From contig CBFGVH010000006.1 of the NCBI GenBank assembly GCA_965652415.1, positions 1-54,174 on the forward strand: DNA of 54,174 bases, given 5' to 3'. Position 1 is the stretch's first letter. Each line of letters begins with the position of its first letter. A model generated the notes under the pieces. It did not search any database, had not been told where the DNA came from, and was given only the letters and a program-made list of their open reading frames with translations. Below are positions 9,668-51,758 of the stretch, in pieces. Position numbers and translations under genes: made by a program. The DNA is from an uncultured Gammaproteobacteria bacterium. Its GTDB lineage: Bacteria; Pseudomonadota; Gammaproteobacteria; Arenicellales; CAJQKF01.

Positions 9668-9682
9668 GGGACGGTACCGTGC

Positions 9683-25705: not shown

Positions 25706-25762
25706 GGTATCCGACCGCCCCGATCGCCGAATGGCGTCGTGCGGTGCCAGCTTATCCAGTTT

Positions 25763-25778
25763 TTGACTAGCTGGTCAA
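25763..25778. promoter_or_regulatory. RutR-type operator
   Basis: TTGACTAGCTGGTCAA, one mismatch to the RutR consensus TTGACCAnnTGGTCAA, between the divergent xdhA and ABC operons. Confidence 0.8.
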
Positions 25779-25913
25779 GTTTTGCCCATAATCCGCTTCA
25801 ACGCGGACCACGGCGCCGGCGCGAGTGTCGGAAACGGTCGTGGCATAATGCGTGGCCGCCTTCGGGCCGGCCCGCCACTACAACGACCGCTACGGATCAC
25901 GAGGAGACGCGCG

Positions 25914-27452: not shown

Positions 27453-28506
27453 GCGTCGCGCCGAGATCTCGACCACCATGATGTACCTCTCGCCGGTCGT
27501 GGCCCTGGGCCTGACCCTGGTCACCGGCGTGATCCTTTTCAGCATCATGGGCGTGTCGCCGGCCGCCGCCCTGTACGCGTTCTTCGTCGAGCCGGTGACG
27601 TCGCTGTGGGGCATCGCCGAGCTCGGCGTCAAGGCGACGCCGCTGGTGCTGATCGGCGTGGCGCTGGCGATCGGCTTTCGTGCCAACGTGTGGAACATCG
27701 GCGCCGAGGGCCAGCTCACCCTGGGTGCCATCTTCGGCGGCGGAGTGGCGCTCGCCTTCCACGAGTTCGACGCCCTATGGGTGCTGCCGCTGATGCTGGT
27801 GGCGGCGCTGGTCGGCGGCGCGCTGTGGGCGGCGATCCCGGCGCTCTTGCGCACCCGCTTCAACGCCAACGAGATCCTGGTCAGCCTGATGCTGACCTAC
27901 GTGGGCACGCTGCTTTTGAGCTACCTCGTGCATGGGCCGTGGCGCGACCCGGACGGCTTCAACTTTCCAGAATCGCGCGTGTTCCACGATGCCGCCACGC
28001 TGCCGGTGATCCTGTCAGGATCGCGCCTGCATCTCGGGTCGCTGCTGGCGCTGGCGGTGGTGGCGGCCGCCTGGGTGATGATGTCGCGCACCCTGGTCGG
28101 CTTCAAGGTGCGGGTCGTCGGCAGCGCGCCGCGGGCCGGGCGCTACGCCGGCTTCAGCCAGAACGCGATCATCTGGCTGACCCTGCTCGCCGGCGGCGCC
28201 TGCGCCGGCCTCGCCGGGGTGATCGAGGTGGCCGGCCCCATCGGCCAGCTGCAGCCGTCGATCTCGCCGGGCTACGGCTTCACCGCCATCATCGTCGCCT
28301 TCGTCGGCCGCCTGCATCCGCTCGGCGTGCTGCTGGCGGGACTTTTGATGGCGCTGTCCTACCTCGGCGGCGAGAACGCCCAGATCAGCCTCAACCTGCC
28401 GCTGGCGGTGACCGGCGTGTTCCAGGGACTGCTGTTGTTCCTGCTGCTGGCCTGCGACGTCCTGATCCGCTACCGAGTCCGCTTTCGCACCGTGGGTACG
28501 CCATGA
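27439..28506 (+). CDS. ABC transporter permease (purine/nucleoside)
   Basis: WNIGAEGQ, NEILVSLML and GYGFTAIIVAF motifs; multiple TM segments. Confidence 0.92.
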   Translation: MPRLERRAEISTTMMYLSPVVALGLTLVTGVILFSIMGVSPAAALYAFFVEPVTSLWGIAELGVKATPLVLIGVALAIGFRANVWNIGAEGQLTLGAIFGGGVALAFHEFDALWVLPLMLVAALVGGALWAAIPALLRTRFNANEILVSLMLTYVGTLLLSYLVHGPWRDPDGFNFPESRVFHDAATLPVILSGSRLHLGSLLALAVVAAAWVMMSRTLVGFKVRVVGSAPRAGRYAGFSQNAIIWLTLLAGGACAGLAGVIEVAGPIGQLQPSISPGYGFTAIIVAFVGRLHPLGVLLAGLLMALSYLGGENAQISLNLPLAVTGVFQGLLLFLLLACDVLIRYRVRFRTVGTP

Positions 28507-29429
28507 GCATCGAGATTCTCGTCGCCACCGTCCTGACCATCATCACCGCCGCGACGCCATTGGTGTTCGCCGCGGTGGGCGAGCTGGTCACCGAGAAATC
28601 CGGCGTGCTCAACCTCGGCGTGGAGGGCATGATGCTGACCGGGGCCGTGACCGGCTTCTCGGCGGTGTTCTTCTTCGACAGCGCCGTCGTCGCCTGCCTG
28701 GCGGCCATGGCCGTCGGCATGCTCACGGCGCTGATCTTCGCCTTCCTGGTGCTGACGCTGCAGGCCAGCCAGGTCGCGACGGGCCTCGCCCTGACCATCT
28801 TCGGCATCGGCCTGTCGGCGCTCGTGGGCCAGAAGATGGTCGGCGTCGCCTACGCCGGCCTGCCGAAGCTGAACGTGCCGTACCTGACGGATTTGCCGGT
28901 GATCGGGCCGCTCCTGTTCAGCCACGACGCGCTGGTGTACACCTCGGTGGCGCTGCCGCTGGCGGTGGCATGGTTCCTGTACCGCACCCGCGCCGGGCTG
29001 ATACTGCGCGCGGTGGGCGATTCCCACGACGCCGCCCACGCCATCGGCTACCCGGTGATCGCCATTCGCTACATGGCCACCGCCTTCGGCGGCGCCATGG
29101 CGGGACTGGCCGGCGCCTACCTGTCACTGGCCTACTCGCCGATGTGGGTCGAGAACATGAGCGCCGGGCGCGGCTGGATCGCGCTGGCGCTGGTGGTGTT
29201 CGGCACCTGGCGGCCGTGGCGCGCGTTCGCCGGCGCCTACCTGTTCGGCGGCATCACGATACTGCAACTGCACGGCCAGGCCATCGGCATCCACGTGCCG
29301 TCGCAGTTCATGACCATGCTGCCCTACGTCGCCACCATCGTCGTGCTGGTCCTGATCTCGCGCGACGCGGCGCGCATACGACTCAATGCGCCGGCATGCA
29401 TCGGCAAACCCTTCCATCCGGCAGCGTGA
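28503..29429 (+). CDS. ABC transporter permease (purine/nucleoside)
   Basis: ATGA overlap; EKSGVLNLGVEGMM, AGRGWIALALV and MLPYVATI motifs. Confidence 0.92.
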   Translation: MSIEILVATVLTIITAATPLVFAAVGELVTEKSGVLNLGVEGMMLTGAVTGFSAVFFFDSAVVACLAAMAVGMLTALIFAFLVLTLQASQVATGLALTIFGIGLSALVGQKMVGVAYAGLPKLNVPYLTDLPVIGPLLFSHDALVYTSVALPLAVAWFLYRTRAGLILRAVGDSHDAAHAIGYPVIAIRYMATAFGGAMAGLAGAYLSLAYSPMWVENMSAGRGWIALALVVFGTWRPWRAFAGAYLFGGITILQLHGQAIGIHVPSQFMTMLPYVATIVVLVLISRDAARIRLNAPACIGKPFHPAA

Positions 29430-29503
29430 TAGACTGGCTGCGGGAAACCACGGCGCGGCACCGACCGCTTCCGTCCTCACGAGACCTCCAAAGGAGCAAC
29501 CAC

Positions 29504-30586
29504 ATGCGCAAACGTGTATTGATCAGGGCCGCGGCCGCCACTCTCGTCGCGGCAGGCCTCGCACTGGGTGCGGCCAACGCCCAGGACGTGACCAGGGTCG
29601 GCTTCATCTACGTCGGACCCATCGGCGACCACGGCTGGACCTACCGCCACGACGTGGCGCGGCGCGCCATCGAGGCGGAGTTCGGCGACGCGGTCGAGAC
29701 CACCTACGTCGAAAGCGTGGCCGAGGGCGCCGATGCCGAGCGCGTGATCCGCAACCTCGCGCAGCGGGGCAACGACCTGATCTTCACCACGTCGTTCGGC
29801 TTCATGAATCCCACCGCCAAGGTGGCCTCCCAGTTTCCGGACGTGAAGTTCGAGCACGCCACCGGCTACAAGCAGGCCGACAATCTCGCCACCTACTCGG
29901 CGCGCTTCTACGAGGGCCGCGCGGTGATCGGCACCATCGCCGGTCACATGACCAAGAGCGGCATCATCGGCTACATCGCCTCGTTCCCGATTCCCGAGGT
30001 GGTGCGCGGCATCAACGCCTTCACCATCGCCATGCGCAAGGTGAACCCGGATGCCGAGGTCAAGGTGGTGTGGGTCAACAGCTGGTACGACCCCGGCAAG
30101 GAAGGCGACGCCGCCAAGGCCCTGATCGACCAGGGCGCCGACATCCTCGCCCAGCACACCGACTCGCCGGCGCCGCTGCAGGTGGCCGAGCAACGCGGCG
30201 TGTACGCCTTCGGGCAGGCGTCCGACATGAAGGCGTTCGCACCCAAGGCCCAGCTCACCGCGATAGTCGACGACTGGGACCCGTACTACATCGAGCGCAC
30301 CCGCGCGGTCATGGAGGGAACCTGGAAATCGCACGACGTCTGGTACGGACTCAAGGAAGGCATGGTGCAGATGGCGCCCTACGGCGACGCGGTTCCCCAG
30401 GAAGTGCGCGACGCCGCTGACGCGGTCAAGAACGCCATCATCGACGGCAGCCTGCATCCGTTCCAGGGCCCCATCCGCAACCAGGCCGGTGAGGTCGTGG
30501 TGGCCGAGGGCGAGGTGGTCAGCGACAAGGACCTGCTCGGCATGAACTGGTATGTCGAGGGCGTGCAGGGCGAACTGCCCCAGTAA
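29504..30586 (+). CDS. BMP-family ABC substrate-binding protein (purine)
   Basis: SD AAGGAG; signal peptide; GFIYVGPIGDHGWTYRH, TTSFGFM, IPEVVRGINAF and QHTDSP motifs. Confidence 0.93.
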   Translation: MRKRVLIRAAAATLVAAGLALGAANAQDVTRVGFIYVGPIGDHGWTYRHDVARRAIEAEFGDAVETTYVESVAEGADAERVIRNLAQRGNDLIFTTSFGFMNPTAKVASQFPDVKFEHATGYKQADNLATYSARFYEGRAVIGTIAGHMTKSGIIGYIASFPIPEVVRGINAFTIAMRKVNPDAEVKVVWVNSWYDPGKEGDAAKALIDQGADILAQHTDSPAPLQVAEQRGVYAFGQASDMKAFAPKAQLTAIVDDWDPYYIERTRAVMEGTWKSHDVWYGLKEGMVQMAPYGDAVPQEVRDAADAVKNAIIDGSLHPFQGPIRNQAGEVVVAEGEVVSDKDLLGMNWYVEGVQGELPQ

Positions 30587-30609
30587 CATGCCGGCGCCTG
30601 CCGGACCGA

Positions 30610-30639
30610 GGGCCCGCGTGGAGTAGTTCGCGCGGGCCC
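30610..30639 (+). terminator. Hairpin after the BMP gene (terminator or mRNA-stabilising stem)
   Basis: GGGCCCGCG...CGCGGGCCC stem, extendable with G-U pairs; no U-tract. Confidence 0.45.
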
Positions 30640-30664
30640 CGGGCGTCTTGATCTCCGACACGCC

Positions 30665-31324
30665 ATGAGCGCCGCGACCGGGGCCAGGCGAACCGGCGCG
30701 GCGCCGGTTCGCGAACGGCGCGTTCGGGCGCGCAACGAGCGGCGCATCCTCAAGGCGGCCGAGGAGGAATTCGACCGCTACGGATTCGGCGGCGCGCGCA
30801 TGCAGCGCATCGCCGACCGCGCAGGCCTGCCCAAGGCCAACATCCATTACTACTATCGCAACAAGCAGGCGCTGTACAACGCGGTGCTGGCCGACATCGT
30901 CGCCATCTGGAACGCGGCGTTCGACCTGATCAGCCCCGACGACGATCCGGCCGAGGCGCTCGCCGCCTACATTCGCACCAAGATGGAGTACTCGCGCACC
31001 CACGCCGCGGCGGCGCGCATCTTCACCGGCGAGATCATGCGCGGCGCACCGAACCTCGGCGAGTACCTGCGCGGCGACCTGCGCACGTGGGTGGCCGAGC
31101 GCGCCGCCGTCATCCGCCGCTGGCAGGGGGCGGGACGGATCGACCAGGTCGACCCGCACCACCTCATCTTCCTGATCTGGAGCGCGACCCAGCACTGGGC
31201 CGACTACGCGGCGCAGATCGCCGCGCTCAGCAACAGGAAGTCTCTCGCACGGGCCGACTACGACGCTGCCGCCGAGTCGCTGGTACGCATCATCCTCAAG
31301 GGCTGCGGCTTGGCGCCGCGGTGA
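30665..31324 (+). CDS. rutR: TetR-family regulator, RutR-like
   Basis: TetR HTH (IADRAGLPKANIHYYY) and RutR-type C-terminus YIRTKMEYSR...IWSATQHWADYAAQI. Confidence 0.8.
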   Translation: MSAATGARRTGAAPVRERRVRARNERRILKAAEEEFDRYGFGGARMQRIADRAGLPKANIHYYYRNKQALYNAVLADIVAIWNAAFDLISPDDDPAEALAAYIRTKMEYSRTHAAAARIFTGEIMRGAPNLGEYLRGDLRTWVAERAAVIRRWQGAGRIDQVDPHHLIFLIWSATQHWADYAAQIAALSNRKSLARADYDAAAESLVRIILKGCGLAPR

Positions 31325-32395: not shown

Positions 32396-33259
32396 TCAGG
32401 CGGCGCGCACGGCGTGTTCGCTCGGCAGCACTTCCTGTTCCTGCACGCCGAGCCCCGGAATCTCGAGGCGCATGCGGTCGCCTTCGCGCAGGTAGCGCTG
32501 CGGCTTCTTTCCCATCCCCACGCCCGCGGGCGTGCCGGTGGCGATGATGTCTCCCGGCAGAAGAGCCATGAACTGGCTCACGTAGCTCACCAGGTGCGCC
32601 ACCGGAAAGATCATGTTGGCGGTGGTGCCGTCCTGCATGCGCTCGCCGTTGACGTCGCAGGTGAGCGAGAGGTCCTGCGGGTCGGCGATCTCGTCCGCGG
32701 TCACGAGGTACGGGCCGAGCGGGCCGAAGGTGTCGGCCGACTTGCCCTTGACCCACTGGCCGCCGCGGTTGAGCTGGTGGTCGCGCTCGGAGACGTCGTT
32801 GAACAGGCAGTAGCCGGCCACGTGATCCAGCGCCTCGGCCTCGCTCACGTAGCGCGCGGCGGTGCCGATCACCGCCGCCAGCTCGACCTCCCAGTCGGTT
32901 TTCGCCGAGCCCGGCGGCAGGCGCACGGGGTCGTTGGGACCGACGATGGACGACGTCGCCTTCATGAACAGGATCGGCTCGTCGGGGGCCTTCATGCCCG
33001 ACTCGGCCGCGTGGTCCGAGTAGTTCAACCCGATGCACACGAGCTTGCCGGGCCGCGCAACGCAGGGACCGATGCGCTCGCCCGCCGGCACCTGCGGCAG
33101 CGCCGCCGGATCGAGGGCGTGCAGGCGGGCAAGGCCTCGCGTTCCGAGAACGTCGCCGTCGATGTCGGTGATCACCGCCGACAGGTCGCGAACCGTGCCG
33201 GCGCGATCCACGAGGGCGGGCTTCTCGCGGCCCGCCGGTCCGTAACGCAATAATCGCAT
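32396..33259 (-). CDS. Fumarylacetoacetate hydrolase family protein (FAHD2 / ureidoglycolate-lyase-like branch)
   Basis: MRLLRYGPAGREKP, CIGLNYSDH, DWEVELA, NDVSER, KGKSADTFGPLGP and TGTPAGVG motifs. Confidence 0.9.
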   Translation of the reverse strand: MRLLRYGPAGREKPALVDRAGTVRDLSAVITDIDGDVLGTRGLARLHALDPAALPQVPAGERIGPCVARPGKLVCIGLNYSDHAAESGMKAPDEPILFMKATSSIVGPNDPVRLPPGSAKTDWEVELAAVIGTAARYVSEAEALDHVAGYCLFNDVSERDHQLNRGGQWVKGKSADTFGPLGPYLVTADEIADPQDLSLTCDVNGERMQDGTTANMIFPVAHLVSYVSQFMALLPGDIIATGTPAGVGMGKKPQRYLREGDRMRLEIPGLGVQEQEVLPSEHAVRAA

Positions 33260-33298
33260 CGTGAGAATCTCTCCTTGGGTTTCCCGGCGGCGCCGGGG

Positions 33299-34297
33299 TC
33301 AGATCTTGAACAGGAGCTTGCCCGCGGACTGGCGCGACTCGAGCCGCCGGTGGGCCTCTACGGCCTCCTCAAGGGCGAAGGCGCGGTCGATGGCGACGTC
33401 CATGTCGTGCTCCCGGACCAGCTCGAAGATGCCGTCGGCGCGCCACTGCGCCTCCTCGGCGTTCCTGCGGTAATGGGCGAGGTGCGGTCGGGTGAAGAAC
33501 ACCGACCCGGCCTCGGCCAGTTCCATGGGCGTGACGCAGTCGACCACGCCGGAACTGGCGCCGAACAGCACGCAGGTGCCGCGCACTGCCAGGCACTCGA
33601 GGCTCTTGTGAATGGTGTCGCGGCCGACCGAGTCGTACACCACGTCCACGCCCTCGCCGCCGGTCGCCTCGCGCACACGCTCGACGAAGTCCTGCTCGCG
33701 GTACAGCACCACCTCGTCGGCGCCGAGCGCGCGCACGCGCTCCGCCTTGGCCCCGCTGCCCACCGTGGTGATCACGTACGCGCCCCTGGCCTTTGCGATC
33801 TGGATGAGCAGCTGGCCGACGCCGCCCGCCCCGGCATGAACCAGGCAGCGGGTGCCCTGCTCGACCTTGTACAGCGAATGGGTCAGGTAATGGCTGGTGG
33901 CGCCCTGCAGCATGATGGAGGCGGCGAGGTCGAAGCCGCACCAGTCGGGCAGCGCGATCACCTTGTCGGCGGCAACCGCGGCATACTCGGCATAGCCCGC
34001 CTTGCCGAGGCAGTAGCCGACGCGCATGCCGGGCTTGAACCGGGTGACGCCCTCGCCCACCGCCTCGACCTCTCCGGCCCCCTCGAGCCCCAGCGTGAAC
34101 GGCACCTCGGTGCCGTAGGTATGCTGGCCGCGGTACAGGCCTTCGCGCATGTACACGTCGGCGTAGTTGATACCGGCGTAGTGCTGGCGGATCAGCACCT
34201 CGCCCGGGCCGGCTTCGGGCCTCGGCACCTCCTCGACAACCAGGTTGTCGGCACCTCCGTACTGGTGGATTGTCACGGCTCGCATGGCGGCTCGCAT
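33299..34297 (-). CDS. NADPH:quinone oxidoreductase (Qor, zinc-free MDR)
   Basis: GINYAD, GLEGAG, HAGAGGVG, YDSVG and FGASSG motifs. Confidence 0.9.
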   Translation of the reverse strand: MRAAMRAVTIHQYGGADNLVVEEVPRPEAGPGEVLIRQHYAGINYADVYMREGLYRGQHTYGTEVPFTLGLEGAGEVEAVGEGVTRFKPGMRVGYCLGKAGYAEYAAVAADKVIALPDWCGFDLAASIMLQGATSHYLTHSLYKVEQGTRCLVHAGAGGVGQLLIQIAKARGAYVITTVGSGAKAERVRALGADEVVLYREQDFVERVREATGGEGVDVVYDSVGRDTIHKSLECLAVRGTCVLFGASSGVVDCVTPMELAEAGSVFFTRPHLAHYRRNAEEAQWRADGIFELVREHDMDVAIDRAFALEEAVEAHRRLESRQSAGKLLFKI

Positions 34298-34332
34298 GGG
34301 GTCTTTCCTCGTATTGAAACTGGCGGCGGACT

Positions 34333-35214
34333 TCAGCTCGGGCGCTCGGTGCCCTTGACCTGGGTACGGTGCAGCACGCGGCGCGCGTTGTCGTCGAAGG
34401 CATCGCGGCGGTGCATGGTGCAGCGGTTGTCCCACATCACCAGGTCGCCGACACGCCAGTTCTGCGCCCAGCAGAACTCGGGCCGGGTCGCGTGCGCCCA
34501 CAGGGCGTCGAGAAGCGCCTCGCTCTCGTCGAGCTCGAGGCCTTCAATGTATCCATTGCGGCGACGGCCGAGATACAGCGCCCGCCGGCCGGTCTCGGGG
34601 TGGGTGGTCACCAGCGGATGCCAGGCGCCCGGGATCTTGCGCGGGTCGGGCTCGTCGGAGAACTGCTCGTAGCCCTTGCGCACCTCGCCGGCGCTGTTGC
34701 GGCTGTAGTCGTGCTTCGAGCGGCGGCCCTCTATGCGATTCTTGACGTCATCGCCCAGGGCCTCGTACGCCGCGTACATGTTGACGAAGCCCGTGTTGCC
34801 GCCGGCATCGGGCACCTCGAGCGAATACAGGCAGGTCATCTTCGGCGGCTCGTCGATGTAGGACATGTCGGTATGCCACTCGGCCTCGTAGTTGCCGAGG
34901 CTGCCGATGGGCCTGCCGTCGACCTTCACGTTGGACACCACCAGGATCTCGGGGAACTCGGGGATCTCGACTTCGCCGGAACTGGTGATCGGGGCCAGGT
35001 CGAGGTCGCCGAAGTGGCGGCTGAAGCGCACCAGGTCGGCGTCGTCGAGCCGCTGGTCGCGAAATCTCAGCACCAGGTGCCGGTGCCAGGCGTCGATGAC
35101 GGCGGCGACGGTGTCGCTATCGAGACCCTGCGACAGGTCGACGCCTTCGATGTCGGCGCCGAGCGCGCTGCCGGTCGGGCTGATCTTGATTGACGGTTTC
35201 ATCCGGGGTTGCAT
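34333..35214 (-). CDS. TauD/TfdA-family Fe(II)/2-oxoglutarate dioxygenase
   Basis: WHTDMSY (HxD), HPLV.THP.TGR and WDNRCTMHRR motifs. Confidence 0.92.
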   Translation of the reverse strand: MQPRMKPSIKISPTGSALGADIEGVDLSQGLDSDTVAAVIDAWHRHLVLRFRDQRLDDADLVRFSRHFGDLDLAPITSSGEVEIPEFPEILVVSNVKVDGRPIGSLGNYEAEWHTDMSYIDEPPKMTCLYSLEVPDAGGNTGFVNMYAAYEALGDDVKNRIEGRRSKHDYSRNSAGEVRKGYEQFSDEPDPRKIPGAWHPLVTTHPETGRRALYLGRRRNGYIEGLELDESEALLDALWAHATRPEFCWAQNWRVGDLVMWDNRCTMHRRDAFDDNARRVLHRTQVKGTERPS

Positions 35215-35236
35215 GAGCGTGACTCCAAAAAATACT

Positions 35237-36349
35237 TCAGGTCAGGTCGAAATCGAGTGACTCGTCGGCAAGCGCCACGACGCGGTCGCGATCAACGGCC
35301 GTGCGTGCCGGCTCGGGCACTCGCAGCAACGGGCCGTCGACGATCAATGGCGCGGTCAGCAGCGAGTCGACGGTCTTCAGGAACCCGTTCATCTCGGCCG
35401 CGGCGTCGAGTCCGAGACGGCCGTAGCACAGCGCTTCGTGGTAACAGCCGAGATCGCTGGCGACGCCGTTGCCGATCACCACGTCCAGGCCCAGGCGGCG
35501 CGCCAGCGCCACCTGTTCGGCGAGGGCGCCGGGGCCGCCGGACTTGCTCATCTTGAGCTTCACCGCGGTAATGCCGTCGATCGAGGCGGCGCGCTCGATG
35601 TCGGCGCTGCCGTAGATGGATTCGTCCAGCATCAGCGGCAGGATGCGTTCGCCGGCGATCGCGGCGACCAGGTCCCAGCGCGACGCCGGCACCGGCTGCT
35701 CGAACACCTCGACCGCGCCGAGCGGCACGCGGCGGGCGAAGTCGAGCGCCTGCCCGAGGTCGTAACCCTGGTTGGCGTCCATCCTCAGGACCGCCCTGCC
35801 CTCGACCGCGTCGGCGATGGCGGCCACGCGCGCCGCGTCGGCGAGGGGCTCGTAGCCGACCTTCACCTTGAGCGTGCGGTAGCCTTGCACGACCAGGTCG
35901 ACGGCGGCGGCCGGCGCCTCGTTCAGCTCCAGGGTGTTGACGGTGCCCAGCAGTTCCACCGCCGCGGGCGGATGGTCGCCATACAGCGTCGGCGCCTCGG
36001 CAAGGTCGTCGAGCGCCTCGTGGATCGCCGACACGACGAACGGGTAGCGTTCGAGATCACCGGCGACGAGGCGAGCGATTTCGCCCGGCGTACGTCCGAG
36101 AAGACCTGGCAGGATACGCCCCGTGTATGCCCATGCCTCGTCGGGAGACTCCGGGGAGTACCCGGCCACGGGGCAGGCCTCGCCCCAGCCCACCCGGCCG
36201 ACGCCGTCGTCGAGCGCGACCACGATCACGTCGAAGGCGTCGAGGCGGCCGAGTGCATTGTCGTAAGGCCGCTTCAGGGCCATGCGCAGGCGGTGCGCCT
36301 CTGCGCGGATCACGGGCATCGCGACGGCCCCGGTGTCGAGCCGGTTCAT
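35237..36349 (-). CDS. Enolase-superfamily enzyme, muconate-lactonizing-enzyme subgroup
   Basis: Start ATG 36349 overlaps the tctA stop; GWGEA, KVKVG, DANQG, EQP, DES and KLKMSK motifs. Confidence 0.88.
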   Translation of the reverse strand: MNRLDTGAVAMPVIRAEAHRLRMALKRPYDNALGRLDAFDVIVVALDDGVGRVGWGEACPVAGYSPESPDEAWAYTGRILPGLLGRTPGEIARLVAGDLERYPFVVSAIHEALDDLAEAPTLYGDHPPAAVELLGTVNTLELNEAPAAAVDLVVQGYRTLKVKVGYEPLADAARVAAIADAVEGRAVLRMDANQGYDLGQALDFARRVPLGAVEVFEQPVPASRWDLVAAIAGERILPLMLDESIYGSADIERAASIDGITAVKLKMSKSGGPGALAEQVALARRLGLDVVIGNGVASDLGCYHEALCYGRLGLDAAAEMNGFLKTVDSLLTAPLIVDGPLLRVPEPARTAVDRDRVVALADESLDFDLT

Positions 36350-37884
36350 GGCGCGCCGTGCTCGCCGGCCGGCGACGGTGACCTGCCCGACGAGGCGGCC
36401 GCACGCCGCTGCTCGAGATACATGCGTGCCAGCGGCAGCACGAACGTGAACACGGCAATCGCCAGGATGCCCAGGGTGAGCGGGCGCTCGACGAAGATCA
36501 TGGCGCCGTTGTTGGAGGAGATCAGGGCGCGGCGGAAGTTCTCCTCGATCAGCGTGCCGAGCACGATGGCCAGCACGATCGGCACCACCGACATGCCCGC
36601 CTGGCGGATCAGGAACCCGAACACGCCCAGGCCGAGGGCGAGGTAGACGTCGAACACGTTGGAGCGCACCGAGTACGCCCCGACCACCGACAGCGTGAGA
36701 ATGGTCATGACGATGAACGGCGTCGGCATCTGCACCAGCCGCACCCAGAACCCGACGCCGACCACGCCGTAGACCAGCATGAACACGTTGGCCAGGCCCA
36801 GCGCCAGGAAGAGGTAGTACACGAGGCCCGCGTCGGAGACGAACAGGCCCGGACCGGGAGTCACGCCGTGCAGCAGCATGGCGCCGAGCAGCACCGCGGC
36901 CGTGGCCGAACCGGGGATGCCGAAGGCGAGCAGCGGCACCAGCGACGTGCTGATGGTGGAATTGTTGCTCGACTCGGCCGCGGCCAGGCCCTCCTCCGAT
37001 CCCTGGCCGAAGGCGTCGGGATCGCGCGAGAAGCGCCGCGCTTCGTTGTAGCCGACCCAGTTGGCGGCGGCCGCACCGATGGCCGGCAGCGCGCCGAGCA
37101 CCGAGCCGACCACCGAACCGATGGCGGTGGAGCGGGCGATGCGGCGCGCGGACGACCACGGCAGGTTGAACGCCCACAGGCCCGGCATCCCCGCAACCTC
37201 GCGCTTGACGTGACGCTGGTACAGAAGCGTGATGGCCTCGGACACGGCGAAAAGCCCGACCAGGGCGGGAATGTAGGGGATGCCCTCGAGCAGGTTCATG
37301 TTGCCGAAGGTGAAGCGCGGATAGCCGGTGAACGGGTCGACGCCGAAGGTGGTGATGATCAGCCCGAACAGGGCGACTACGAATCCCGCCAACACCATGC
37401 CGCGCACCAGCGAGGCGATGATGGCCACGCCCAGCACACCCAGGGCGAAGTACTCGGGCGCGCCGAAGTTCAGCGCGAAGTCCGCCAGCGGCAGCGAGAA
37501 GAACATCAACACCACGGTGCCGGCGATGCCGCCGATCACCGAGGCGAATATGGAAATGGACAACGCCCGGTCGAGATTGCCCGCCTTGGTCATCGGGTAG
37601 CCGTCGAGCACCGTGGCCGCGGAGGCCGGGGTGCCGGGAACGCCGATGGTGATGGCAGTGATGGAGCCGGCGTAAGTGGCCGCGGTGTACAGGCCGATGA
37701 GCACCGCCAGCGCCACCTCGGTGGACAGGGCGTAGGTGGCCGCCACGAGCAGCGCGGTGCCCGAAGTGGCGTCGAGGCCCGGCAGCGCGCCGAAGGCCAT
37801 GCCGATGGTCACGCCGATGAACAGGCCCAGCAGCACGGGCGGCTGCAGCAGCAACTCGGCGCCGGCGAGAATGCCCTCGATCAT
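36346..37884 (-). CDS. tctA: Tripartite tricarboxylate transporter large permease
   Basis: GALPGL, GVPGTPAS, DGYPM, ESSNN and GIPGS motifs; multiple TM segments. Confidence 0.93.
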   Translation of the reverse strand: MIEGILAGAELLLQPPVLLGLFIGVTIGMAFGALPGLDATSGTALLVAATYALSTEVALAVLIGLYTAATYAGSITAITIGVPGTPASAATVLDGYPMTKAGNLDRALSISIFASVIGGIAGTVVLMFFSLPLADFALNFGAPEYFALGVLGVAIIASLVRGMVLAGFVVALFGLIITTFGVDPFTGYPRFTFGNMNLLEGIPYIPALVGLFAVSEAITLLYQRHVKREVAGMPGLWAFNLPWSSARRIARSTAIGSVVGSVLGALPAIGAAAANWVGYNEARRFSRDPDAFGQGSEEGLAAAESSNNSTISTSLVPLLAFGIPGSATAAVLLGAMLLHGVTPGPGLFVSDAGLVYYLFLALGLANVFMLVYGVVGVGFWVRLVQMPTPFIVMTILTLSVVGAYSVRSNVFDVYLALGLGVFGFLIRQAGMSVVPIVLAIVLGTLIEENFRRALISSNNGAMIFVERPLTLGILAIAVFTFVLPLARMYLEQRRAAASSGRSPSPAGEHGAP

Positions 37885-37896
37885 GATCGCACCCGT

Positions 37897-38325
37897 TCAG
37901 AACGACGCGATGGGGATATGCAGCAACCGGTCGAACAGCAGCCACAGCATCGCCGGGAAGACGATGCTGTAAATGCCGTTGGCGACGAGCCGCCGCGACC
38001 CCGACAGCCACAGGCCGGCGAACAGCGCGAACGGCAGCACCACGAAGAAACCGAGGTGTGTCGCCGCGAAGATCACCACGGCCAGGGCCGCGCCGACCCC
38101 GATGCCGAGCGCCACGAGGGAGAACGGCACGAACCTGGCCCGGCGCCGGGACAGGTAGAGGTCGGCAAGGATCAGCACGATCATGAGAACGGCGAGCGCC
38201 TCGGGCAGCGCCGCGGGACCGATGTCCCGCGACGACAGCGCCTTCGGGAACGTGCCCGACGTCACCACGATCACAGCGCCGAACGCGATCAGTCCGAGAT
38301 AGATCAGATGCGTCAGCGGGAACAT
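37897..38325 (-). CDS. tctB: Tripartite tricarboxylate transporter small permease
   Basis: Four TM segments, IGPAALP, terminal LF..LL.IP; lies between tctC and tctA. Confidence 0.85.
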   Translation of the reverse strand: MFPLTHLIYLGLIAFGAVIVVTSGTFPKALSSRDIGPAALPEALAVLMIVLILADLYLSRRRARFVPFSLVALGIGVGAALAVVIFAATHLGFFVVLPFALFAGLWLSGSRRLVANGIYSIVFPAMLWLLFDRLLHIPIASF

Positions 38326-38329
38326 CGGC

Positions 38330-39283
38330 TTACTCCAGCATGCCCAGGGACTTGAGCATCTTCTCGTCGGCCACCGCCTGCTCCTCCAGCAGCGACTGGA
38401 ACTCGGCGCGGCTCATGGTGCCTTCGAGCGTCGACGACTCGGCGAGGTAGGCCTGGAAGTCCTCGCTCGCCACGGCTTCGTCGACAATGGCGTGCAGCTT
38501 CTCGACGGTCTCCTCGGGAGTGTCGCCGTGCACGAACATGCCGCGCCAGTGATAACGGGCGAGATCATGGCCGAGTTCGCGGAAAGTGGGCACGTCCGGA
38601 TGCGCCTCGACGCGCTCCTCGGAGGTCACCGCCACTACCTGGGTGCGCTCCTTGAATCGGCCGTAGACGCTGATGTTGCTCATCGCCGCCTCGATGTCAC
38701 CTGCCATGACCGCGCCTATGGCGTCACCGCCGCTGCTGAACGGCACCCAGGTCGGCTCCACGCCGGCGAGCTCTCCGAGCATCAGCGTGGTGATCTGGTG
38801 CGGCGAGCCGGTGCCGTAGCCGCCGACGCGGATCTGGCCGGGATTGGCCTTCATCGCGGCCAGCAGGCTGTCGAGGTCCTCGTACTCGCCGTCACGGCTG
38901 GTGTACAGCGCGAACGGGTCCAGCTGGATGCGGTACAGCGGCTTGAAGTCGGTCCACTTGTGGGCCGCGCCGGGGAGCTGCAGCACCGAGGTGATGCCGG
39001 TGGCATCGTTGAAAATGGTGTGGCCGTCGGCGGCCTGCCCCTTCAGGTAGGCCATGGCCACCTGGCCGGTGCCGCCGGGACGCGGCTCGACCACCACGGG
39101 CACGCCGGCGACGGCTTCCATCTGCGCCGCCAGGCGGCGCACCATGACGTCCTGCGGCGCGCCGGCCGAGGAGCCGTGCACGATCTTGATGGGCCCTGAA
39201 GGGAAGTCGCTGGCCTGGACCGGGCCGGCCAGGACGAGTGCGGACGCCGCGGCGGCCGCGTAAGCGGTGAATCGTTTCAGCAT
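38330..39283 (-). CDS. tctC: Tripartite tricarboxylate transporter substrate-binding protein (Bug/TctC)
   Basis: Signal peptide; SAGAPQD..R, PGGTG, ADGHT and PDVPTFRE.G motifs. Confidence 0.9.
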   Translation of the reverse strand: MLKRFTAYAAAAASALVLAGPVQASDFPSGPIKIVHGSSAGAPQDVMVRRLAAQMEAVAGVPVVVEPRPGGTGQVAMAYLKGQAADGHTIFNDATGITSVLQLPGAAHKWTDFKPLYRIQLDPFALYTSRDGEYEDLDSLLAAMKANPGQIRVGGYGTGSPHQITTLMLGELAGVEPTWVPFSSGGDAIGAVMAGDIEAAMSNISVYGRFKERTQVVAVTSEERVEAHPDVPTFRELGHDLARYHWRGMFVHGDTPEETVEKLHAIVDEAVASEDFQAYLAESSTLEGTMSRAEFQSLLEEQAVADEKMLKSLGMLE

Positions 39284-39396
39284 CTGGAGGGTCCTCCACG
39301 TGAGTCGGTTTGCGTGTCAACGGGGCCGTGATAGTCACTGAGACCTGCCGGCACCTCGCGGACAACGTAACCGAGGCACGGATCTGTCGTCAATGG

Positions 39397-39466
39397 ATTA
39401 TCGATAAAATTTATTATTATCGATTTTGATTTTTTCTAATCACGTCACCATTTTTCTCGATAAAAT
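39397..39466. promoter_or_regulatory. AT-rich divergent promoter with repeated TCGAT-core operator sites
   Basis: TTATCGATAA (39398-39407), TTATCGATTT (39417-39426) and TTCTCGATAA (39454-39463). Confidence 0.65.
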
Positions 39467-39496
39467 AGCCTTCTACACGTGAAGTACCCGGAGACC

Positions 39497-40171
39497 ATGA
39501 GCACCGCCCAAAAATCCGCCGCCACCCTGACCGACCTCGCCTACGCCCGCCTGCGCGAGGACATCCTGAGCGGCCGCCTGGAGCCGGGGTTCAAGCTGCG
39601 CGTGGAGCATCTCAAGGCCCACTACGGCACCGGGGCCAGTCCTATTCGCGAGGCCCTGTCGCGCCTGACCGGCGACGGGCTCGCCCGCGCCGAGGGACGA
39701 CGCGGCTTCCGCGTGTCCGAGGTGTCGCGCGAAGAACTCATGGATATCACGGAGCTGCGCGTGCTCATGGAGACCCGTGCGCTGAGCCTGGCGATCGACG
39801 CGGGCGACGACGATTGGGAGGCCGAGGTGCTGGCCAGCTTTCACCGCCTGTCGAAGCTCGACGAGAGCCTCAAGCAGCAGCAGCCGGGAGAGGAATGGGA
39901 GGCGCGACACCGCGATTTTCACGGCGCCCTGGTCGCAGCCTGCCCGTCGAGCTGGCTGAAGTACTTTCGCGAGATCCTGTTCGACCAGAGCGAACGCTAC
40001 CGTCGCCTCGCCCTTGCCAACGCGCCCGGCGAACGACCGGTCGCCGAGGAACACCGCGCCATCATGGAGGCCACCCTCGGGCGCGACACGGCGCGCGCCT
40101 GCGAACTTCTGACCGCCCACGTTCGCGCCACGGCCGAAGCGGTCGCCCGCAGCGAGCTGGTGCAGGACTGA
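39497..40171 (+). CDS. GntR/FadR-family regulator with FCD domain (CsiR/GlaR-like)
   Basis: AYARLREDIL...PG.KL, SPIREALSRL, RGFRV, HRDFH and EEHRAI motifs. Confidence 0.9.
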   Translation: MSTAQKSAATLTDLAYARLREDILSGRLEPGFKLRVEHLKAHYGTGASPIREALSRLTGDGLARAEGRRGFRVSEVSREELMDITELRVLMETRALSLAIDAGDDDWEAEVLASFHRLSKLDESLKQQQPGEEWEARHRDFHGALVAACPSSWLKYFREILFDQSERYRRLALANAPGERPVAEEHRAIMEATLGRDTARACELLTAHVRATAEAVARSELVQD

Positions 40172-41154: not shown

Positions 41155-41595
41155 TCAATGTCCGCCGCGGCCGACCTCGAAAGTGACGTCCCTGCGGCTG
41201 CCGTCCTCGAACTCGAGCGCCATCTCGACGCTGTCACCCTCGTTCAGATCGCGGGCAAGGCCGATCAGCATGATGTGCAGCCCGCCCGGCTCGAACGCCA
41301 CCTGCGAACCCGCGGGCAGCGTCACCGAGTCGACACGACGCATCTTCATCATGCCGTCCTCCATGGCGTGGGTGTGGAGTTCGACGTTCTCCGCCACGTC
41401 GGAGTGTGCGGCAACGAGTTCGTGATCGGTGCCGTCCGTATTGCGCACCGTCATGTAGGCGCCGCTCACCGTCATGCCGGGCGCAGCGGCGCGCACCATG
41501 GGCCGGTCCACTTCGACGAGGTCGGCGACGCCGGCGGCGAACGCCGGGGCGGCCAGCGCCGCGACAAACGCGAGCGCAAGGGGTCGGATAAACAT
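41155..41595 (-). CDS. Periplasmic copper chaperone PCu(A)C
   Basis: Signal peptide; GAYM, VELHTH..EDGMMKMR and PGGLHIML Cu-ligand pattern. Confidence 0.92.
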   Translation of the reverse strand: MFIRPLALAFVAALAAPAFAAGVADLVEVDRPMVRAAAPGMTVSGAYMTVRNTDGTDHELVAAHSDVAENVELHTHAMEDGMMKMRRVDSVTLPAGSQVAFEPGGLHIMLIGLARDLNEGDSVEMALEFEDGSRRDVTFEVGRGGH

Positions 41596-41714
41596 GGGAA
41601 ACACCTCCGGAAGGATTGGGAAACCTGGTGCCCGCCGGACGGTTCGACGCCGGTCCGGGCGATGCCTTCAGTCTAGTACAATCCACGCGCAACCCGGTAC
41701 CCGAAGCGGAGGCG

Positions 41715-42902
41715 ATGGAAAATCACGTCCACGAATGGCTGAACCTGGCGATCCGCTGGATCCACGTGATCGTCGGCATCGCCTGGATCGGCGCGTCGTT
41801 CTACTTCAACTGGCTGGAGAACCGGCTGGACCGCCTCGGCGCGCGCGGCGCCGGCATCGCCGGGGAGCTGTGGGCCGTGCACGGCGGCGGCTTCTACCAC
41901 CTGCAGAAGTACGAGGTCGCGCCGCCGCGGCTCCCCGAGACGCTGCACTGGTTCAAGTGGGAGGCCTACACCACGTGGATCTCGGGCATGGCGCTTTTGG
42001 CGGTGGTGTACTACTTCAATGCGCGGGCGTTCGTCGTCGACCCGGCGAAGATGGAATTGCCGCCGGCAGCGGCCGTCGCCATCGGGCTCGGCGCCATCGC
42101 CGTCGCCTGGCTCGTCTACGACGGGCTTTGCAGAAGCCCCCTGAAACAGCGGCCGGTGCTGCTGTCGGCGGCGGTGGCGGTGTTCCTCGCCGCACTGGCC
42201 TGGGCGCTGGACATGGTCTTGAGCAGCCGCGCGGCCTACATGCACGTCGGCGCCGCCATCGGCACCATCATGGTCGCCAACGTGTTCTTCGTCATCATTC
42301 CCGGCCAGCGCGAACTGGTGGCGGCGCTCGGCGCGGGCCGCGAGCCGGACCCGGTTCCGGGCAGGAACGCGCTGGTCAGGTCGCGGCACAACAACTACCT
42401 GACGCTGCCGGTGCTGTTCATCATGATCAGCGGCCACTTCCCGTCCACTTACGGCCACCGGCACGGCTGGCTGGTACTTGTGGCGCTGTCGCTGATCGGC
42501 GTGGCCGTGCGCCACTACTTCAACATCCGCCACGCGAGCCCCCGCGCGGTCTGGATCCTGCCGGCGTCGTTCGCCGCGCTGGTCGCGGTGATGGTTTACA
42601 CCGCGCCGACTCCTATGTCGCGCACCACGACCGTGGTTGCACCCGACGCCGACATCGCCGTGATCCTGCGCCAGCGCTGCACCTCCTGCCACGCACCATC
42701 GCCGACCCAGCCCGGCTTCGCGTCGCCGCCGGCGGGTCTGGCGCTGGACGACATGGACGCGGTGATCGCCAACGCCGAACGCATCTACCTGACCACCGTG
42801 GCCACCAGCACCATGCCGCTCGGCAACCTCACGGGCATGACCGAGACCGAGCGCGCCGTGCTCGGCATGTGGCTCGAGTCGAAGATCGGAGAACGCCGAT
42901 GA
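41715..42902 (+). CDS. puuD: Integral-membrane cytochrome c urate oxidase
   Basis: SD GGAGG; RWIHVIVGIAWIGASFYF, LWAVHGGGFY, LHWFKWEAYTTW, RSRHNNYLTLPV and C-terminal CTSCH...MP motifs. Confidence 0.93.
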   Translation: MENHVHEWLNLAIRWIHVIVGIAWIGASFYFNWLENRLDRLGARGAGIAGELWAVHGGGFYHLQKYEVAPPRLPETLHWFKWEAYTTWISGMALLAVVYYFNARAFVVDPAKMELPPAAAVAIGLGAIAVAWLVYDGLCRSPLKQRPVLLSAAVAVFLAALAWALDMVLSSRAAYMHVGAAIGTIMVANVFFVIIPGQRELVAALGAGREPDPVPGRNALVRSRHNNYLTLPVLFIMISGHFPSTYGHRHGWLVLVALSLIGVAVRHYFNIRHASPRAVWILPASFAALVAVMVYTAPTPMSRTTTVVAPDADIAVILRQRCTSCHAPSPTQPGFASPPAGLALDDMDAVIANAERIYLTTVATSTMPLGNLTGMTETERAVLGMWLESKIGERR

Positions 42903-43819
42903 ACAAGGCCGCCCCCTACCCGCGCGACATGACCGGATACGGCGCGCACCCCCCTCGGGTCGAGTGGCCCGGCGGCGCGCGCATCGCGGTGCAGTTCGTG
43001 GTCAACTACGAGGAAGGCGCGGAGAACTGCGTGCTGCACGGCGACGCGGCCTCCGAAGCTTTCCTGTCGGAGATCATCGGCGCGCCGGCCTATGCCGGAA
43101 TGCGCCACGTCAACATGGAGTCGATCTACGAGTACGGCTCGCGGGTCGGCTTCTGGCGCCTGCACCGCCTGTTCACCGGCCGCGGCATACCGGTCACGGT
43201 GTTCGGCGTCGCCATGGCGCTGGCGCGCAACCCGGACGCGGTGGCGGCCATGAACGAGGCCGGCTGGGAGATCGCAAGCCACGGCTGGCGCTGGATCGAC
43301 TACCAGCACGTCGACGAGGCAGTGGAGTACGAGCACCTCGAGCGCGCGGTTGCCGTGCACACCGAGGCGACGGGCAGCGCCCCGCTCGGCTTCTATCTCG
43401 GCCGCGCCAGCGGCAACACCCATCGCCTGGTGGCCGAATACGGCCGCTTCGTCTACCATGCCGACAGCTACGCCGACGACCTGCCCTACTGGGACACGCG
43501 TCACGGCGCGGCGCAGCTCGTGGTGCCATACACCCTGGACGCCAACGACATGCGCTTCGCCACCGCCCAGGGGTTCAACAGCGGCGCGCAGTTCTTCGAG
43601 TACCTGAAGGACACCTTCGACGTGCTCTACGCCGAGGGCGAGCATTGTCCGAAAATGATGTCCGTGGGCCTTCACTGCCGCCTTGCCGGACGGCCCGGGC
43701 GCACCGCGGCGCTGGCGCGCTTCGTCGACTACGCCGGCGCACGAGACCGCGTGTGGTTCGCCACCCGGCTCGACATCGCCCGCGCGTGGATGCGCCAGTT
43801 CCCGGCACCCGCTGCCTGA
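42899..43819 (+). CDS. puuE: Metal-independent allantoinase (polysaccharide deacetylase fold)
   Basis: YPRDM.GYG, NYEEGAE, ESIYEYGSR, HGWRWIDY and GLHCRL.GRPGR motifs. Confidence 0.94.
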   Translation: MNKAAPYPRDMTGYGAHPPRVEWPGGARIAVQFVVNYEEGAENCVLHGDAASEAFLSEIIGAPAYAGMRHVNMESIYEYGSRVGFWRLHRLFTGRGIPVTVFGVAMALARNPDAVAAMNEAGWEIASHGWRWIDYQHVDEAVEYEHLERAVAVHTEATGSAPLGFYLGRASGNTHRLVAEYGRFVYHADSYADDLPYWDTRHGAAQLVVPYTLDANDMRFATAQGFNSGAQFFEYLKDTFDVLYAEGEHCPKMMSVGLHCRLAGRPGRTAALARFVDYAGARDRVWFATRLDIARAWMRQFPAPAA

Positions 43820-43847
43820 GCGGTCTACCTTCAACAAGCGAACGACG

Positions 43848-44816
43848 ATGAGCAATCAGTGGATCAACCTGGCCTCGGCCAGGCTCGGCGCGACGGCGGT
43901 TTCCGCCAGCGACGACTTCTTCGCCGACAAGGCGCGCATGCTCGACGACGCCGAGCCGGTGTTCGTGCCGGGCAAGTACGACGACAACGGCAAGTGGATG
44001 GACGGCTGGGAGTCGCGCCGCAAGCGCGTGCCGGGACACGACTGGTGCGTGGTGAAGCTGGCCCGCGCCGGCACCATCGCCGAGATCGAGATCGACACCC
44101 GCCACTTCACCGGCAACTACGCCCCCGCGGCCTCGATCGAGGCATGCCTGTCGGACGACGACGATCCCGGCGCCGACGCCGGCTGGCGGGAGATCATGCC
44201 GGTCACCGCGCTGGCGGGCGACGACCGCCGCCGGATCGCGGTCGCCGATGAGGACGCATTCTCCCATGTGCGCCTGAATATCTTCCCCGACGGCGGGGTG
44301 GCACGCCTCAGGGTGTACGGCCGACCCGTGCCTGGTCAAGTCGGCGACGCGACTATCGACCTCGCCGCGGGCCTCAACGGCGGCGTCGCGCTCGCCTGCA
44401 ACGACGCACACTTCGGCGCCATGGGCAACCTGCTGCTGCCGGGGCGCGGCCGCGACATGGGCGACGGCTGGGAGACGCGCCGGCGGCGCGAGCCGGGCTT
44501 CGACTGGGTCATCGTGCAGCTCGGCCGGCCCGGCACCATCGAGCGCATCGAGATCGACACCGCCCACTTCAAGGGCAACTACCCCGACCGCGCCAGCGTG
44601 CAGGCGGCGCTGGTGCCGCGACCCGACCCCGTGTCCATCGCCGCGAACAGCCTCAACTGGCCCACCGTGCTCGGCGAGCAGCACCTTGGCGCCGACGCCA
44701 ACCACGTGTTCGACACCCTCGCCGACCCCGGCATCGTCAACTGCGTGCGGCTTAACATCTTCCCCGACGGCGGCGTCAGCCGCCTTCGCGTGTTCGGGCG
44801 TGCGACGAAGGGCTGA
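43848..44816 (+). CDS. alc: Allantoicase
   Basis: Two repeats, each with DGWE(S/T)RR.R and VRLNIFPDGGV.RLRV.G. Confidence 0.95.
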   Translation: MSNQWINLASARLGATAVSASDDFFADKARMLDDAEPVFVPGKYDDNGKWMDGWESRRKRVPGHDWCVVKLARAGTIAEIEIDTRHFTGNYAPAASIEACLSDDDDPGADAGWREIMPVTALAGDDRRRIAVADEDAFSHVRLNIFPDGGVARLRVYGRPVPGQVGDATIDLAAGLNGGVALACNDAHFGAMGNLLLPGRGRDMGDGWETRRRREPGFDWVIVQLGRPGTIERIEIDTAHFKGNYPDRASVQAALVPRPDPVSIAANSLNWPTVLGEQHLGADANHVFDTLADPGIVNCVRLNIFPDGGVSRLRVFGRATKG

Positions 44817-44820
44817 AACG

Positions 44821-51661: not shown

Positions 51662-51758
51662 ACCCGCCCCGCTTCGTGCGCATCCGCTACCGTCGGCCGC
51701 ACGCTACAATGCAGGGCATCGAAACCGGGCCACTGCCGCCCTTCGGCAGGCTGTGCAG

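Follow-up and report, generated by a model that had tools for sequence, protein, structure and literature searches.

A 54,174-nucleotide stretch of contig CBFGVH010000006.1 (assembly GCA_965652415.1, positions 1 to 54,174; hereafter the window) of an uncultured gammaproteobacterium of the Arenicellales (CAJQKF01) encodes a GntR-family regulator and, divergent from it, seven genes for a tripartite tricarboxylate transporter (TTT; tctC, tctB and tctA), an enolase-superfamily enzyme of the muconate-lactonizing enzyme (MLE) subgroup, a TauD/TfdA-family dioxygenase, a zeta-crystallin-type oxidoreductase (Qor) and a fumarylacetoacetate hydrolase (FAH)-family enzyme. From our comparative analyses, we class this as a repressor-controlled, TTT-linked catabolic operon. 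The reading that we favour, with a probability of about 0.55, is an aerobic route that takes an anionic, heteroatom-substituted and probably chiral carboxylate to pyruvate, encoded by a substrate-inducible operon that is repressed by its own FCD-type GntR protein at a conserved palindromic operator. The substrate class, the chemical steps and their order are deduced from gene content, protein families, catalytic residues and conservation. The parts all come from known families, and their combination matches no pathway that we found described; a search of the openly accessible full-text literature gave no described pathway with this gene set.

Gene positions were taken from the open reading frame listing and its translations, families from Pfam and function models from NCBIfam. 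The initial annotation had reported seven co-oriented, closely packed genes divergent from an FCD-GntR gene, and all eight genes lie where it had placed them, in the families it had named:

39479..40171, plus strand: GntR-family regulator with FCD effector domain, 230 aa (PF00392 and PF07729)
39389..39465, no strand: regulatory region with three boxes of TTTTATCGATAAAA type and TTGAC
38330..39283, minus strand: tctC, TTT periplasmic solute-binding protein, 317 aa (PF03401)
37897..38325, minus strand: tctB, small membrane subunit, 142 aa (PF07331)
36346..37884, minus strand: tctA, large membrane subunit, 512 aa (PF01970, 443.9 bits)
35237..36349, minus strand: MLE-subgroup enolase, 370 aa from the ATG start (PF13378)
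34333..35214, minus strand: TauD/TfdA-family Fe(II)/2-oxoglutarate dioxygenase, 293 aa (PF02668, 237.4 bits)
33299..34297, minus strand: Qor, zeta-crystallin-type NAD(P)H oxidoreductase, 332 aa (PF00107/PF08240)
32396..33259, minus strand: FAH-family enzyme, 287 aa (PF01557, 254.5 bits)

The gaps from tctC through tctB, tctA, enolase, TauD and Qor to FAH are 4, 12, -4, 22, 35 and 39 nt, the tctA stop and the enolase start overlapping as ATGA, and purine-rich stretches precede gene starts in the operon. With PF03401, PF07331 and PF01970 in three adjacent genes, the transporter belongs to the TTT systems. An aldo-keto reductase gene is convergent with FAH, 15 nt from the FAH end. In the RNA library X14, most of the cluster is represented by contigs, of which single ones span 37676-39331 (tctA-tctB-tctC) and 36251-36802 (enolase-tctA); libraries X16 and X17 cover parts only, and the short-sided joints (20-22 nt) in X15 contigs were taken as assembly noise. 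Such contigs carry no strand, level or transcript ends and may stem from DNA carry-over; they are compatible with co-transcription, which they weakly indicate, and are not proof of one transcript.

To place the unit among other genomes, one genome per species was scanned first with the enolase alone and in a second round with 26 aligned relatives, which yielded 80 non-redundant loci (the best 80 of at least 526 relatives); the queries used to search these were the eight proteins of the window and reference proteins from the loci themselves. Ten loci with an enolase at least 50% identical to that of the window are called clade A here: L008 and L012 (two gammaproteobacterial metagenome-assembled genomes, MAGs), L009 (Billgrantia endophytica), L003 and L019 (Rhodobacteraceae), and L010, L011, L013, L015 and L020 (Rhodospirillales and Sneathiella). 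The gene unit thus recurs in ten other loci of Gamma- and Alphaproteobacteria, as expected if the genes co-occur as a unit: all eight genes stand in the same order in L008, L012 and L013, the last with quite different flanks, and the core is found in all ten. FAH orthologues (56-76% identity) are present in 10/10 clade-A loci, TauD orthologues (60-77%) in eight and TctC orthologues (56-83%) likewise in eight. Orthologous tctC and tctA occur together in eight loci, L015 having a partial tctA (67%) and L020 distant TTT genes only. GntR orthologues (55-77%) lie beside the cluster in nine, the tenth contig (L015) being only 4146 bases long. A Qor orthologue (59-79%) was found in five of the ten loci; L010 and L011 have a short-chain dehydrogenase/reductase (SDR) gene after FAH instead, and L009, L015 and L020 have neither, so that Qor is dispensable and the fixed reduction step of the initial annotation did not hold up. 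The invariant core thus consists of five elements: regulator, TTT importer, enolase, an oxygenase and FAH.

Between gntR and tctC, the divergent region of 195 nt is AT-rich, against a G+C content of 69% (range 66-72%) in the window, and has three ATCGAT/CTCGAT-centred boxes. Boxes of the TTTTATCGATAAAA type occupy 39396-39409, 39415-39428 and 39452-39465, the first of which abuts a TTGAC facing tctC (39389-39393; -35-like in the minus-strand reading), and an inverted repeat, ATCGATAA/TTATCGAT, lies in the same region. The 14-bp palindrome-like box, with 0-2 mismatches and 0-3 nt upstream of TTGAC, is found in the window and in 9/9 other clade-A loci that include the region; the operator postulated between gntR and tctC is therefore kept in 10/10 sequences. 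This geometry suggests a predicted repressor that would occlude the -35 element, and the GntR/FCD protein is likely the repressor that binds the conserved boxes. At one mismatch or fewer, TTTATCGATAAA occurs twice in the 3.38-Mb genome of the window (197 contigs, 93.7% complete), both times in this divergent region, so that the regulon consists of this one locus. No promoter came out of a simple scan for the sigma-70 consensus, and the promoter was therefore assigned from conservation only; terminator-like sites were no commoner than in shuffles (4 vs 2.9). Because the gene set recurs in ten non-redundant loci of other genomes and the operator box is kept, the eight-gene cluster is, as far as comparative evidence goes, a real, self-regulated unit beyond chance. 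The best NCBIfam model for the regulator is CsiR (NF008576), at 174.2 bits against a cut-off of 218, which leaves it outside CsiR proper. The CsiR-CsiD pair is the glutarate hydroxylation system of E. coli, and it resembles the present one in that an FCD-type GntR protein closest to CsiR governs a 2-oxoglutarate-dependent oxygenase acting on a carboxylate; it differs in that the oxygenase here is of the TauD rather than the CsiD family, and in operator and partner genes.

In the enolase, K161-x-K163, D191, E217, D242 and K266 are invariant across 26 family members; with the KxK of strand 2, the D/E/D metal ligands and the second Lys of strand 6 all present, it belongs to the MLE subgroup. Among solved structures it comes closest to dipeptide epimerases, though with no more than 88 bits, and its solved relatives also include muconate cycloisomerases. 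It scored below the cut-offs for muconate cycloisomerase (TIGR02534, 80.2 < 334.95), o-succinylbenzoate synthase (TIGR01927, 92.7 < 130.55) and L-Ala-D/L-Glu epimerase (NF041118, 66.9 < 500; NF011708, 28.5 < 343), and the arabinonate and talarate/galactarate dehydratase models gave only 35 and 26 bits. The DxD motif after strand 8 of dipeptide epimerases binds the ammonium group of the dipeptide; E. coli YcjG has ADLDG, and the enolase family has an invariant E319-M-N321-G in about that region, two stretches that MAFFT did not align with each other. In public sources, including the protein atlas, the family carries only generic mandelate racemase (MR)/MLE names. According to PMC4996985, MR/MLE and TTT genes also occur near arylmalonate decarboxylases.

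A quick maximum-likelihood tree of 80 enolases, from which L015 is absent since its open reading frame was missed by the length filter, puts the window enolase in a 14-row clade (SH-aLRT 100) made up of clade A and a clade B (L014, L016, L017 and L018). Every one of these rows is accompanied by an oxygenase, which is TauD in 12 and an NtaA-family luciferase-like monooxygenase (LLM) with a flavin reductase in two, and by one or more FAH genes; we read the oxygenase as a probable integral step and not a passenger. The sister clade comprises 62 rows at about 36-45% identity, mostly of Betaproteobacteria. There, the enolase gene has one of two kinds of neighbour: a TauD orthologue (47-55%), or the glutamate mutase genes for GlmS, GlmL and GlmE (GlmE at 431.6 bits against a cut-off of 390, GlmL at 586 against 475). 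The two contexts are interleaved in the tree, and the partners often include a Qor orthologue (51-58%) and TTT genes. The acylating sulfoacetaldehyde dehydrogenase SauS was found in 19/80 enolase-centred loci (735 bits vs a cut-off of 600), a SauT-like ligase in 11/80, a SucCD-like ligase in 6/80 and the sulfoacetaldehyde acetyltransferase Xsc in 5/80 (818 vs 676).

The sister clade offers observations of its own. GlmS occurs in 39/80 enolase-centred loci (e.g. L047:7390-18703, L079, L061, L075, L023, L028 and L059), and tight operons in aerobic Betaproteobacteria and some Alphaproteobacteria combine the sister-clade enolase with the Qor orthologue, GlmS/GlmL/GlmE and TTT genes, often together with Xsc, SauS and a SauT- or SucCD-like ligase. 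Beside closely related sister-clade enolases, the TauD orthologue replaces the mutase. Our literature search for a pathway joining coenzyme-B12 glutamate mutase with sulfoacetaldehyde metabolism found none, and we know of no such pathway. The genome of the window has no GlmE and no glutamate mutase.

Across an alignment of 11 dioxygenase sequences, neither the HxD...H iron triad (H114, D116 and H268) nor the C-terminal Arg pair (R279 and R283) varies, as is typical of the TauD/TfdA superfamily. It is the sole TauD homologue in the genome of the window. Its score for the taurine dioxygenase model NF007104 (188.9 bits, cut-off 313) excludes it from TauD in the strict sense (EC 1.14.11.17), and the positions aligned with H70, N95 and S158 of E. 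coli TauD, which we take to be the taurine-contacting residues, are A, Y and N; clade-A orthologues differ likewise, so the taurine contacts are not kept. The nearest solved chain is that of (R)-phenoxypropionate dioxygenase (RdpA; 176.8 bits). Two Rhodobacteraceae loci are without TauD, and directly after FAH they encode an LLM of the NtaA/DmoA family (TIGR03860, 522-523 bits vs a cut-off of 279.7) together with a flavin reductase. This replacement supports the oxidative cleavage proposed in the initial annotation. Both oxygenase families are known to convert X-CH(R)-COO- to a 2-oxo acid and to cleave the C-S bond of sulfonates. Among known systems, the TfdA/RdpA/SdpA dioxygenases and the NtaA/EmoA/YxeK-type flavin monooxygenases are families that perform oxidative C-X cleavage next to a carboxylate, and the resemblance lies in RdpA as the best solved relative of the dioxygenase and in the NtaA/DmoA family of its replacement. 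In those systems, the oxygenases are not known to be paired with an enolase-superfamily enzyme or FAH, and genes of aromatic or aminopolycarboxylate pathways are absent here.

When TauD was taken as the centre of the scan (80 loci with 54-64% identity, the best 80 of at least 598 relatives), a wide group of orthologues emerged whose partners vary, none of them dominant, the commonest families occurring in at most 12/80 loci: TctC in 12, a major facilitator superfamily carrier in 11, SDR in 10, FAH in nine, an alpha/beta-hydrolase (within about 5 kb) in eight, a Qor-like enzyme in eight, the enolase in four and SauS in one. One TauD orthologue lies in a TauD-SauS-SucCD operon. Of the nine loci with FAH, five have it immediately upstream of TauD (L096, L100, L104, L113 and L125), and TauD-FAH coupling therefore recurs without the enolase. 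In these Burkholderiales MAGs, an FAH with 41-45% identity to that of the window precedes a TauD orthologue (58-63%) by 69-119 nt, with no enolase or TTT gene in the unit, and in L125 an alpha/beta-hydrolase gene precedes the pair. With two or three genes, these units resemble a pared-down form of the same chemistry.

The FAH protein aligns over its full length with L-2,4-diketo-3-deoxyrhamnonate hydrolase (LRA6; PDB 8gsr, 305.6 bits), about half of the positions being identical by eye, and its LNYSDHAAES stretch aligns with LNYEDHAIES of 8gsr; the shared H-x-x-E stretch identifies it as a member of the FAH superfamily. Against NF053535 (2,4-didehydro-3-deoxy-L-rhamnonate hydrolase) it scored 396.7, below the cut-off of 500, and it is thus not an LRA6 equivalog. 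The full-length match to a pyruvate-forming diketo-acid hydrolase supports the oxo-acid processing suggested in the initial annotation. The general FAH mechanism and the role of its His/Glu dyad are treated in PMC13669639. For Qor, in which medium-chain dehydrogenase/reductase (MDR) domains are present, the nearest solved chain is 2-haloacrylate reductase (1wly, 246.3 bits), and the NADPH:quinone reductase model NF008024 gave 260.5, under its cut-off of 348. The best solved relative of TctC is the TTT binding protein 25hk (127.7 bits; no ligand named in the table), and TTT binding proteins for aspartate and glutamate are also among its solved relatives. A different TTT system, for glucarate, is described in PMC5507952.

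The genome encodes two further FAH paralogues (C14:152-3295 and C47:3205-6173; loci L088 and L089). The one on C14 (45% identity) is flanked by genes for a PcaD-like alpha/beta-hydrolase and a Qor-like enzyme. The second paralogue (57% identity; NF053535, 399.8 bits) adjoins genes for a PRK08199-type thiamine-diphosphate enzyme and 3-hydroxybutyryl-CoA dehydrogenase. Three paralogous TauD-enolase-FAH-TTT clusters (L018, L020 and L126) lie within about 45 kb on one Rhodospirillales MAG chromosome (OZ244199.1), with transposase/integrase genes between and beside them. This arrangement suggests that the unit is mobile and that it serves a set of related substrates.

Taken as a pathway, TctCBA would import the anionic acid, and the MLE-type enolase would abstract the proton alpha to the carboxylate. 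The enolase may then either invert the stereocentre, giving an enantioselective oxygenase access to both forms, or eliminate a beta-substituent to yield a 2-oxo acid. The TauD-family dioxygenase would hydroxylate the heteroatom-bearing carbon, and the adduct would collapse to a carbonyl with release of the substituent; in the Rhodobacteraceae, the NtaA-type FMNH2 monooxygenase and its reductase may take over this step. FAH would cleave or decarboxylate a beta-dicarbonyl 2-oxo acid of the acylpyruvate or oxaloacetate type to give pyruvate, and Qor, or the SDR in some relatives, would handle a carbonyl or enone side product as a dispensable enzyme. High-identity matches to a characterised pathway were absent, all NCBIfam equivalog scores lying below their cut-offs.

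As to the released group, we tentatively regard a sulfonate as the leading candidate substituent, for instance in compounds that resemble sulfosuccinate or sulfo-sugar acids; groups bound through N, O or a thioether have about the same likelihood. We lean towards sulfonate because of the Xsc and SauS links in the enolase sister clade and because of the sulfonate genes of the host, in whose genome a true Xsc (1060 bits) and SauS (729 bits) are encoded, on contigs other than that of the window. It is conceivable, if doubtful, that the operon degrades a sulfonated carboxylate by an oxygen-dependent route not described before, and such a route could take two forms. An alpha-sulfo acid such as sulfosuccinate might be racemised by the enolase and desulfonated to oxaloacetate, which FAH would decarboxylate; or a sulfo analogue of the diketo-hydrolase sugar-acid route might yield pyruvate and a C2/C3 sulfonate, which TauD would desulfonate. 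Dioxygenases and luciferase-like monooxygenases are used in parallel for the same job on sulfonates. Where organosulfonates are cleaved oxygenolytically (by TauD, and by SqoD in the dioxygenase route for sulfoquinovose), a TauD-family enzyme likewise acts in a carbon-catabolic rather than a sulfur-scavenging setting; here, unlike there, the taurine-binding residues are not kept, and sulfoquinovosidase, reductase and ABC importer are missing. A review of sulfoquinovose catabolism (PMC12890257) describes SauS with an ADP-forming ligase, and the words enolase, fumarylacetoacetate and tripartite do not occur in it.

Several findings weigh against the favoured reading or its sulfonate version. No protein of the unit attains any curated NCBIfam equivalog cut-off. 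Sulfonate-linked genes accompany only the sister clade of the enolase (about 40% identity) and are absent beside the 14-row clade of the window; with no Xsc, SauS or exporter gene inside the cluster or the clade-A loci, these are not organosulfonate clusters by gene content. Neither a sulfite exporter nor a sulfite dehydrogenase was found among the annotated neighbours, not every one of which was scanned. The dioxygenase has Ala at the position of the sulfonate-binding His70 of E. coli TauD, its closest solved relative cleaves an ether and not a C-S bond, and SauS accompanies it in only one of the 80 TauD-centred loci. In the sister-clade locus L135, the genes for TauD, the enolase and an NtaA-type LLM lie next to one another, and LLM and TauD are therefore not strictly interchangeable. 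Finally, FAH is nearest to enzymes of sugar-acid pathways and so fits a sugar-acid route as well.

Such a route, of the non-phosphorylative type known for L-rhamnonate, L-fuconate or pentonates, is in our view the main alternative, though an unlikely one: the enolase would dehydrate or ring-open an imported acid sugar to a 2-keto-3-deoxy acid, Qor or the SDR would oxidise C4, and FAH would release pyruvate and a short acid, while a peripheral TauD would trim a modified form (sulfo, O-methyl or sulfate ester) or process the short acid. Besides the closeness of FAH to LRA6, a dehydrogenase (Qor or SDR) in 7/10 clade-A loci and an FMN-dependent 2-hydroxy-acid dehydrogenase near the cluster in L009, L016 and L017 speak for it, and enolase, FAH and GntR sets occur together in L-lyxonate, L-fucose and L-rhamnose pathways. 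The enolase itself argues otherwise, with its MLE KxK/K pattern, its nearest relatives among the epimerases and its low scores for the acid-sugar dehydratase models. Moreover, it is the oxygenase that is invariant and not the dehydrogenase, which is missing near three of ten clade-A and all four clade-B loci, and the unit lacks a sugar kinase, aldolase, lactonase and sugar dehydrogenase. LRA3-LRA6, the non-phosphorylative L-rhamnose/L-fucose diketo-hydrolase route, is among the closest known systems. An enolase-superfamily enzyme, an NAD(P)-dependent oxidoreductase and a pyruvate-releasing FAH are encoded together in both, whereas the enolase here is of the MLE and not the acid-sugar dehydratase subgroup, a dispensable Qor-type MDR stands in place of an SDR 4-dehydrogenase, the oxygenase is obligatory, uptake is by a TTT system, and FAH falls below the equivalog cut-off.

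Another reading is an oxygen-dependent deamination of a 3-substituted aspartate-like amino acid, in which TauD would hydroxylate the beta-carbon of an amino-dicarboxylate after its import, the enolase would eliminate ammonia or water to give a (substituted) oxaloacetate or its enol form, and FAH would tautomerise or decarboxylate the product. In the sister clade, the enolase is paired with TauD or else with what looks like a genuine glutamate mutase, an enzyme that forms 3-methylaspartate. This pairing would fit, as would the aspartate and glutamate binding proteins related to TctC and a conserved E319 that may, in an uncertain alignment, occupy the ammonium-binding place of the dipeptide epimerases. 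We nevertheless hold it to be improbable: ordinary amino-dicarboxylates need no such route, the genome of the window has no glutamate mutase, the NtaA-type LLM is to our knowledge not known as an amino-acid beta-hydroxylase, and sister-clade contexts may not carry over a long, fully supported branch. Still less credit is due to a muconate- or lactone-type route of modified ortho-cleavage, with the enolase acting as cycloisomerase on an unsaturated dicarboxylate or a lactone that has been taken up, Qor reducing an enone and FAH cleaving a beta-diketone. It would account for the muconate cycloisomerases among the solved relatives of the enolase, for the dienelactone-hydrolase-family gene that adjoins gntR in the window, L008 and L012, for the alpha/beta-hydrolases near TauD in 8/80 loci and for the PcaD-like hydrolase, FAH and Qor-like set on C14; yet the muconate cycloisomerase model scores far below its cut-off, the dienelactone hydrolase gene is convergent with gntR, outside the operon and absent from the eight other clade-A loci, and TauD would be left without a role. 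Least probable of all, to the point of being hardly credible, is a substrate derived from a purine or other N-heterocycle, which the initial annotation had left open because of the position of the cluster. In the window, the cluster is flanked by xdhAB and the genes for a nucleoside ABC importer on one side and by those for a PuuD-type urate oxidase, allantoicase and ureidoglycolate lyase on the other; 5-hydroxyisourate (HIU) hydrolase and OHCU decarboxylase are also encoded among these purine-catabolism genes. These flanks are common to L008 and L012 only, both close relatives, and differ in the other 12 of 14 clade A and B loci; the operator motif is absent from the purine genes. The purine link thus appears to be a lineage-specific accident of position.

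The flanks hold further features. Positions 20260-31324 and 41155-45333 form a complete-looking purine catabolism region, which also encodes a RutR-like TetR regulator and a Bmp-type nucleoside ABC importer, and its membrane PuuD-type urate oxidase gene adjoins one for a PCuAC copper chaperone. The dienelactone hydrolase, aldo-keto reductase and TetR neighbours were considered as members of the unit and rejected, being kept only in two close relatives and lying outside the operator-controlled operon. At 8321-11502, a homogentisate 1,2-dioxygenase gene lies near a gene for a glutathione S-transferase-like protein of the maleylacetoacetate isomerase type, and a weak FAH-like match (about 10100-10693) was obtained in the genome tblastn. 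A 712-aa protein at 51753-53891, which comes after a 754-aa methyltransferase-domain protein, has a Ser/Thr protein kinase domain and a weak dCache-like match (26.7 bits, Pfam cut-off 45).

Few pools of transporters and enzymes without a known substrate are as large as those of the TTT importers and the MLE-type enolases, and the cluster described here is a clean entry point to both: a compact unit across bacterial classes, with a single-locus regulon, a defined 14-bp operator and a core distinct from its accessory genes. Its carriers include the named isolates Billgrantia endophytica MC28 and Carideicomes alvinocaridis SCR17. Near-identical DNA was found in 19 listed metagenome runs of nine studies (sludge, activated sludge, rhizosphere, landfill and biofilm), so that the substrate may be of importance in wastewater. 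Should it be a sulfonate, a synthetic chelator or a surfactant fragment, the operon would represent a new mineralisation route in the sulfur or xenobiotic cycle. If the sulfonate route is true, the enolase family would be a new class of sulfonate-pathway enzyme, and through its sister clade the coenzyme-B12 glutamate mutase of aerobic bacteria would be linked with the metabolism of sulfoacetaldehyde.

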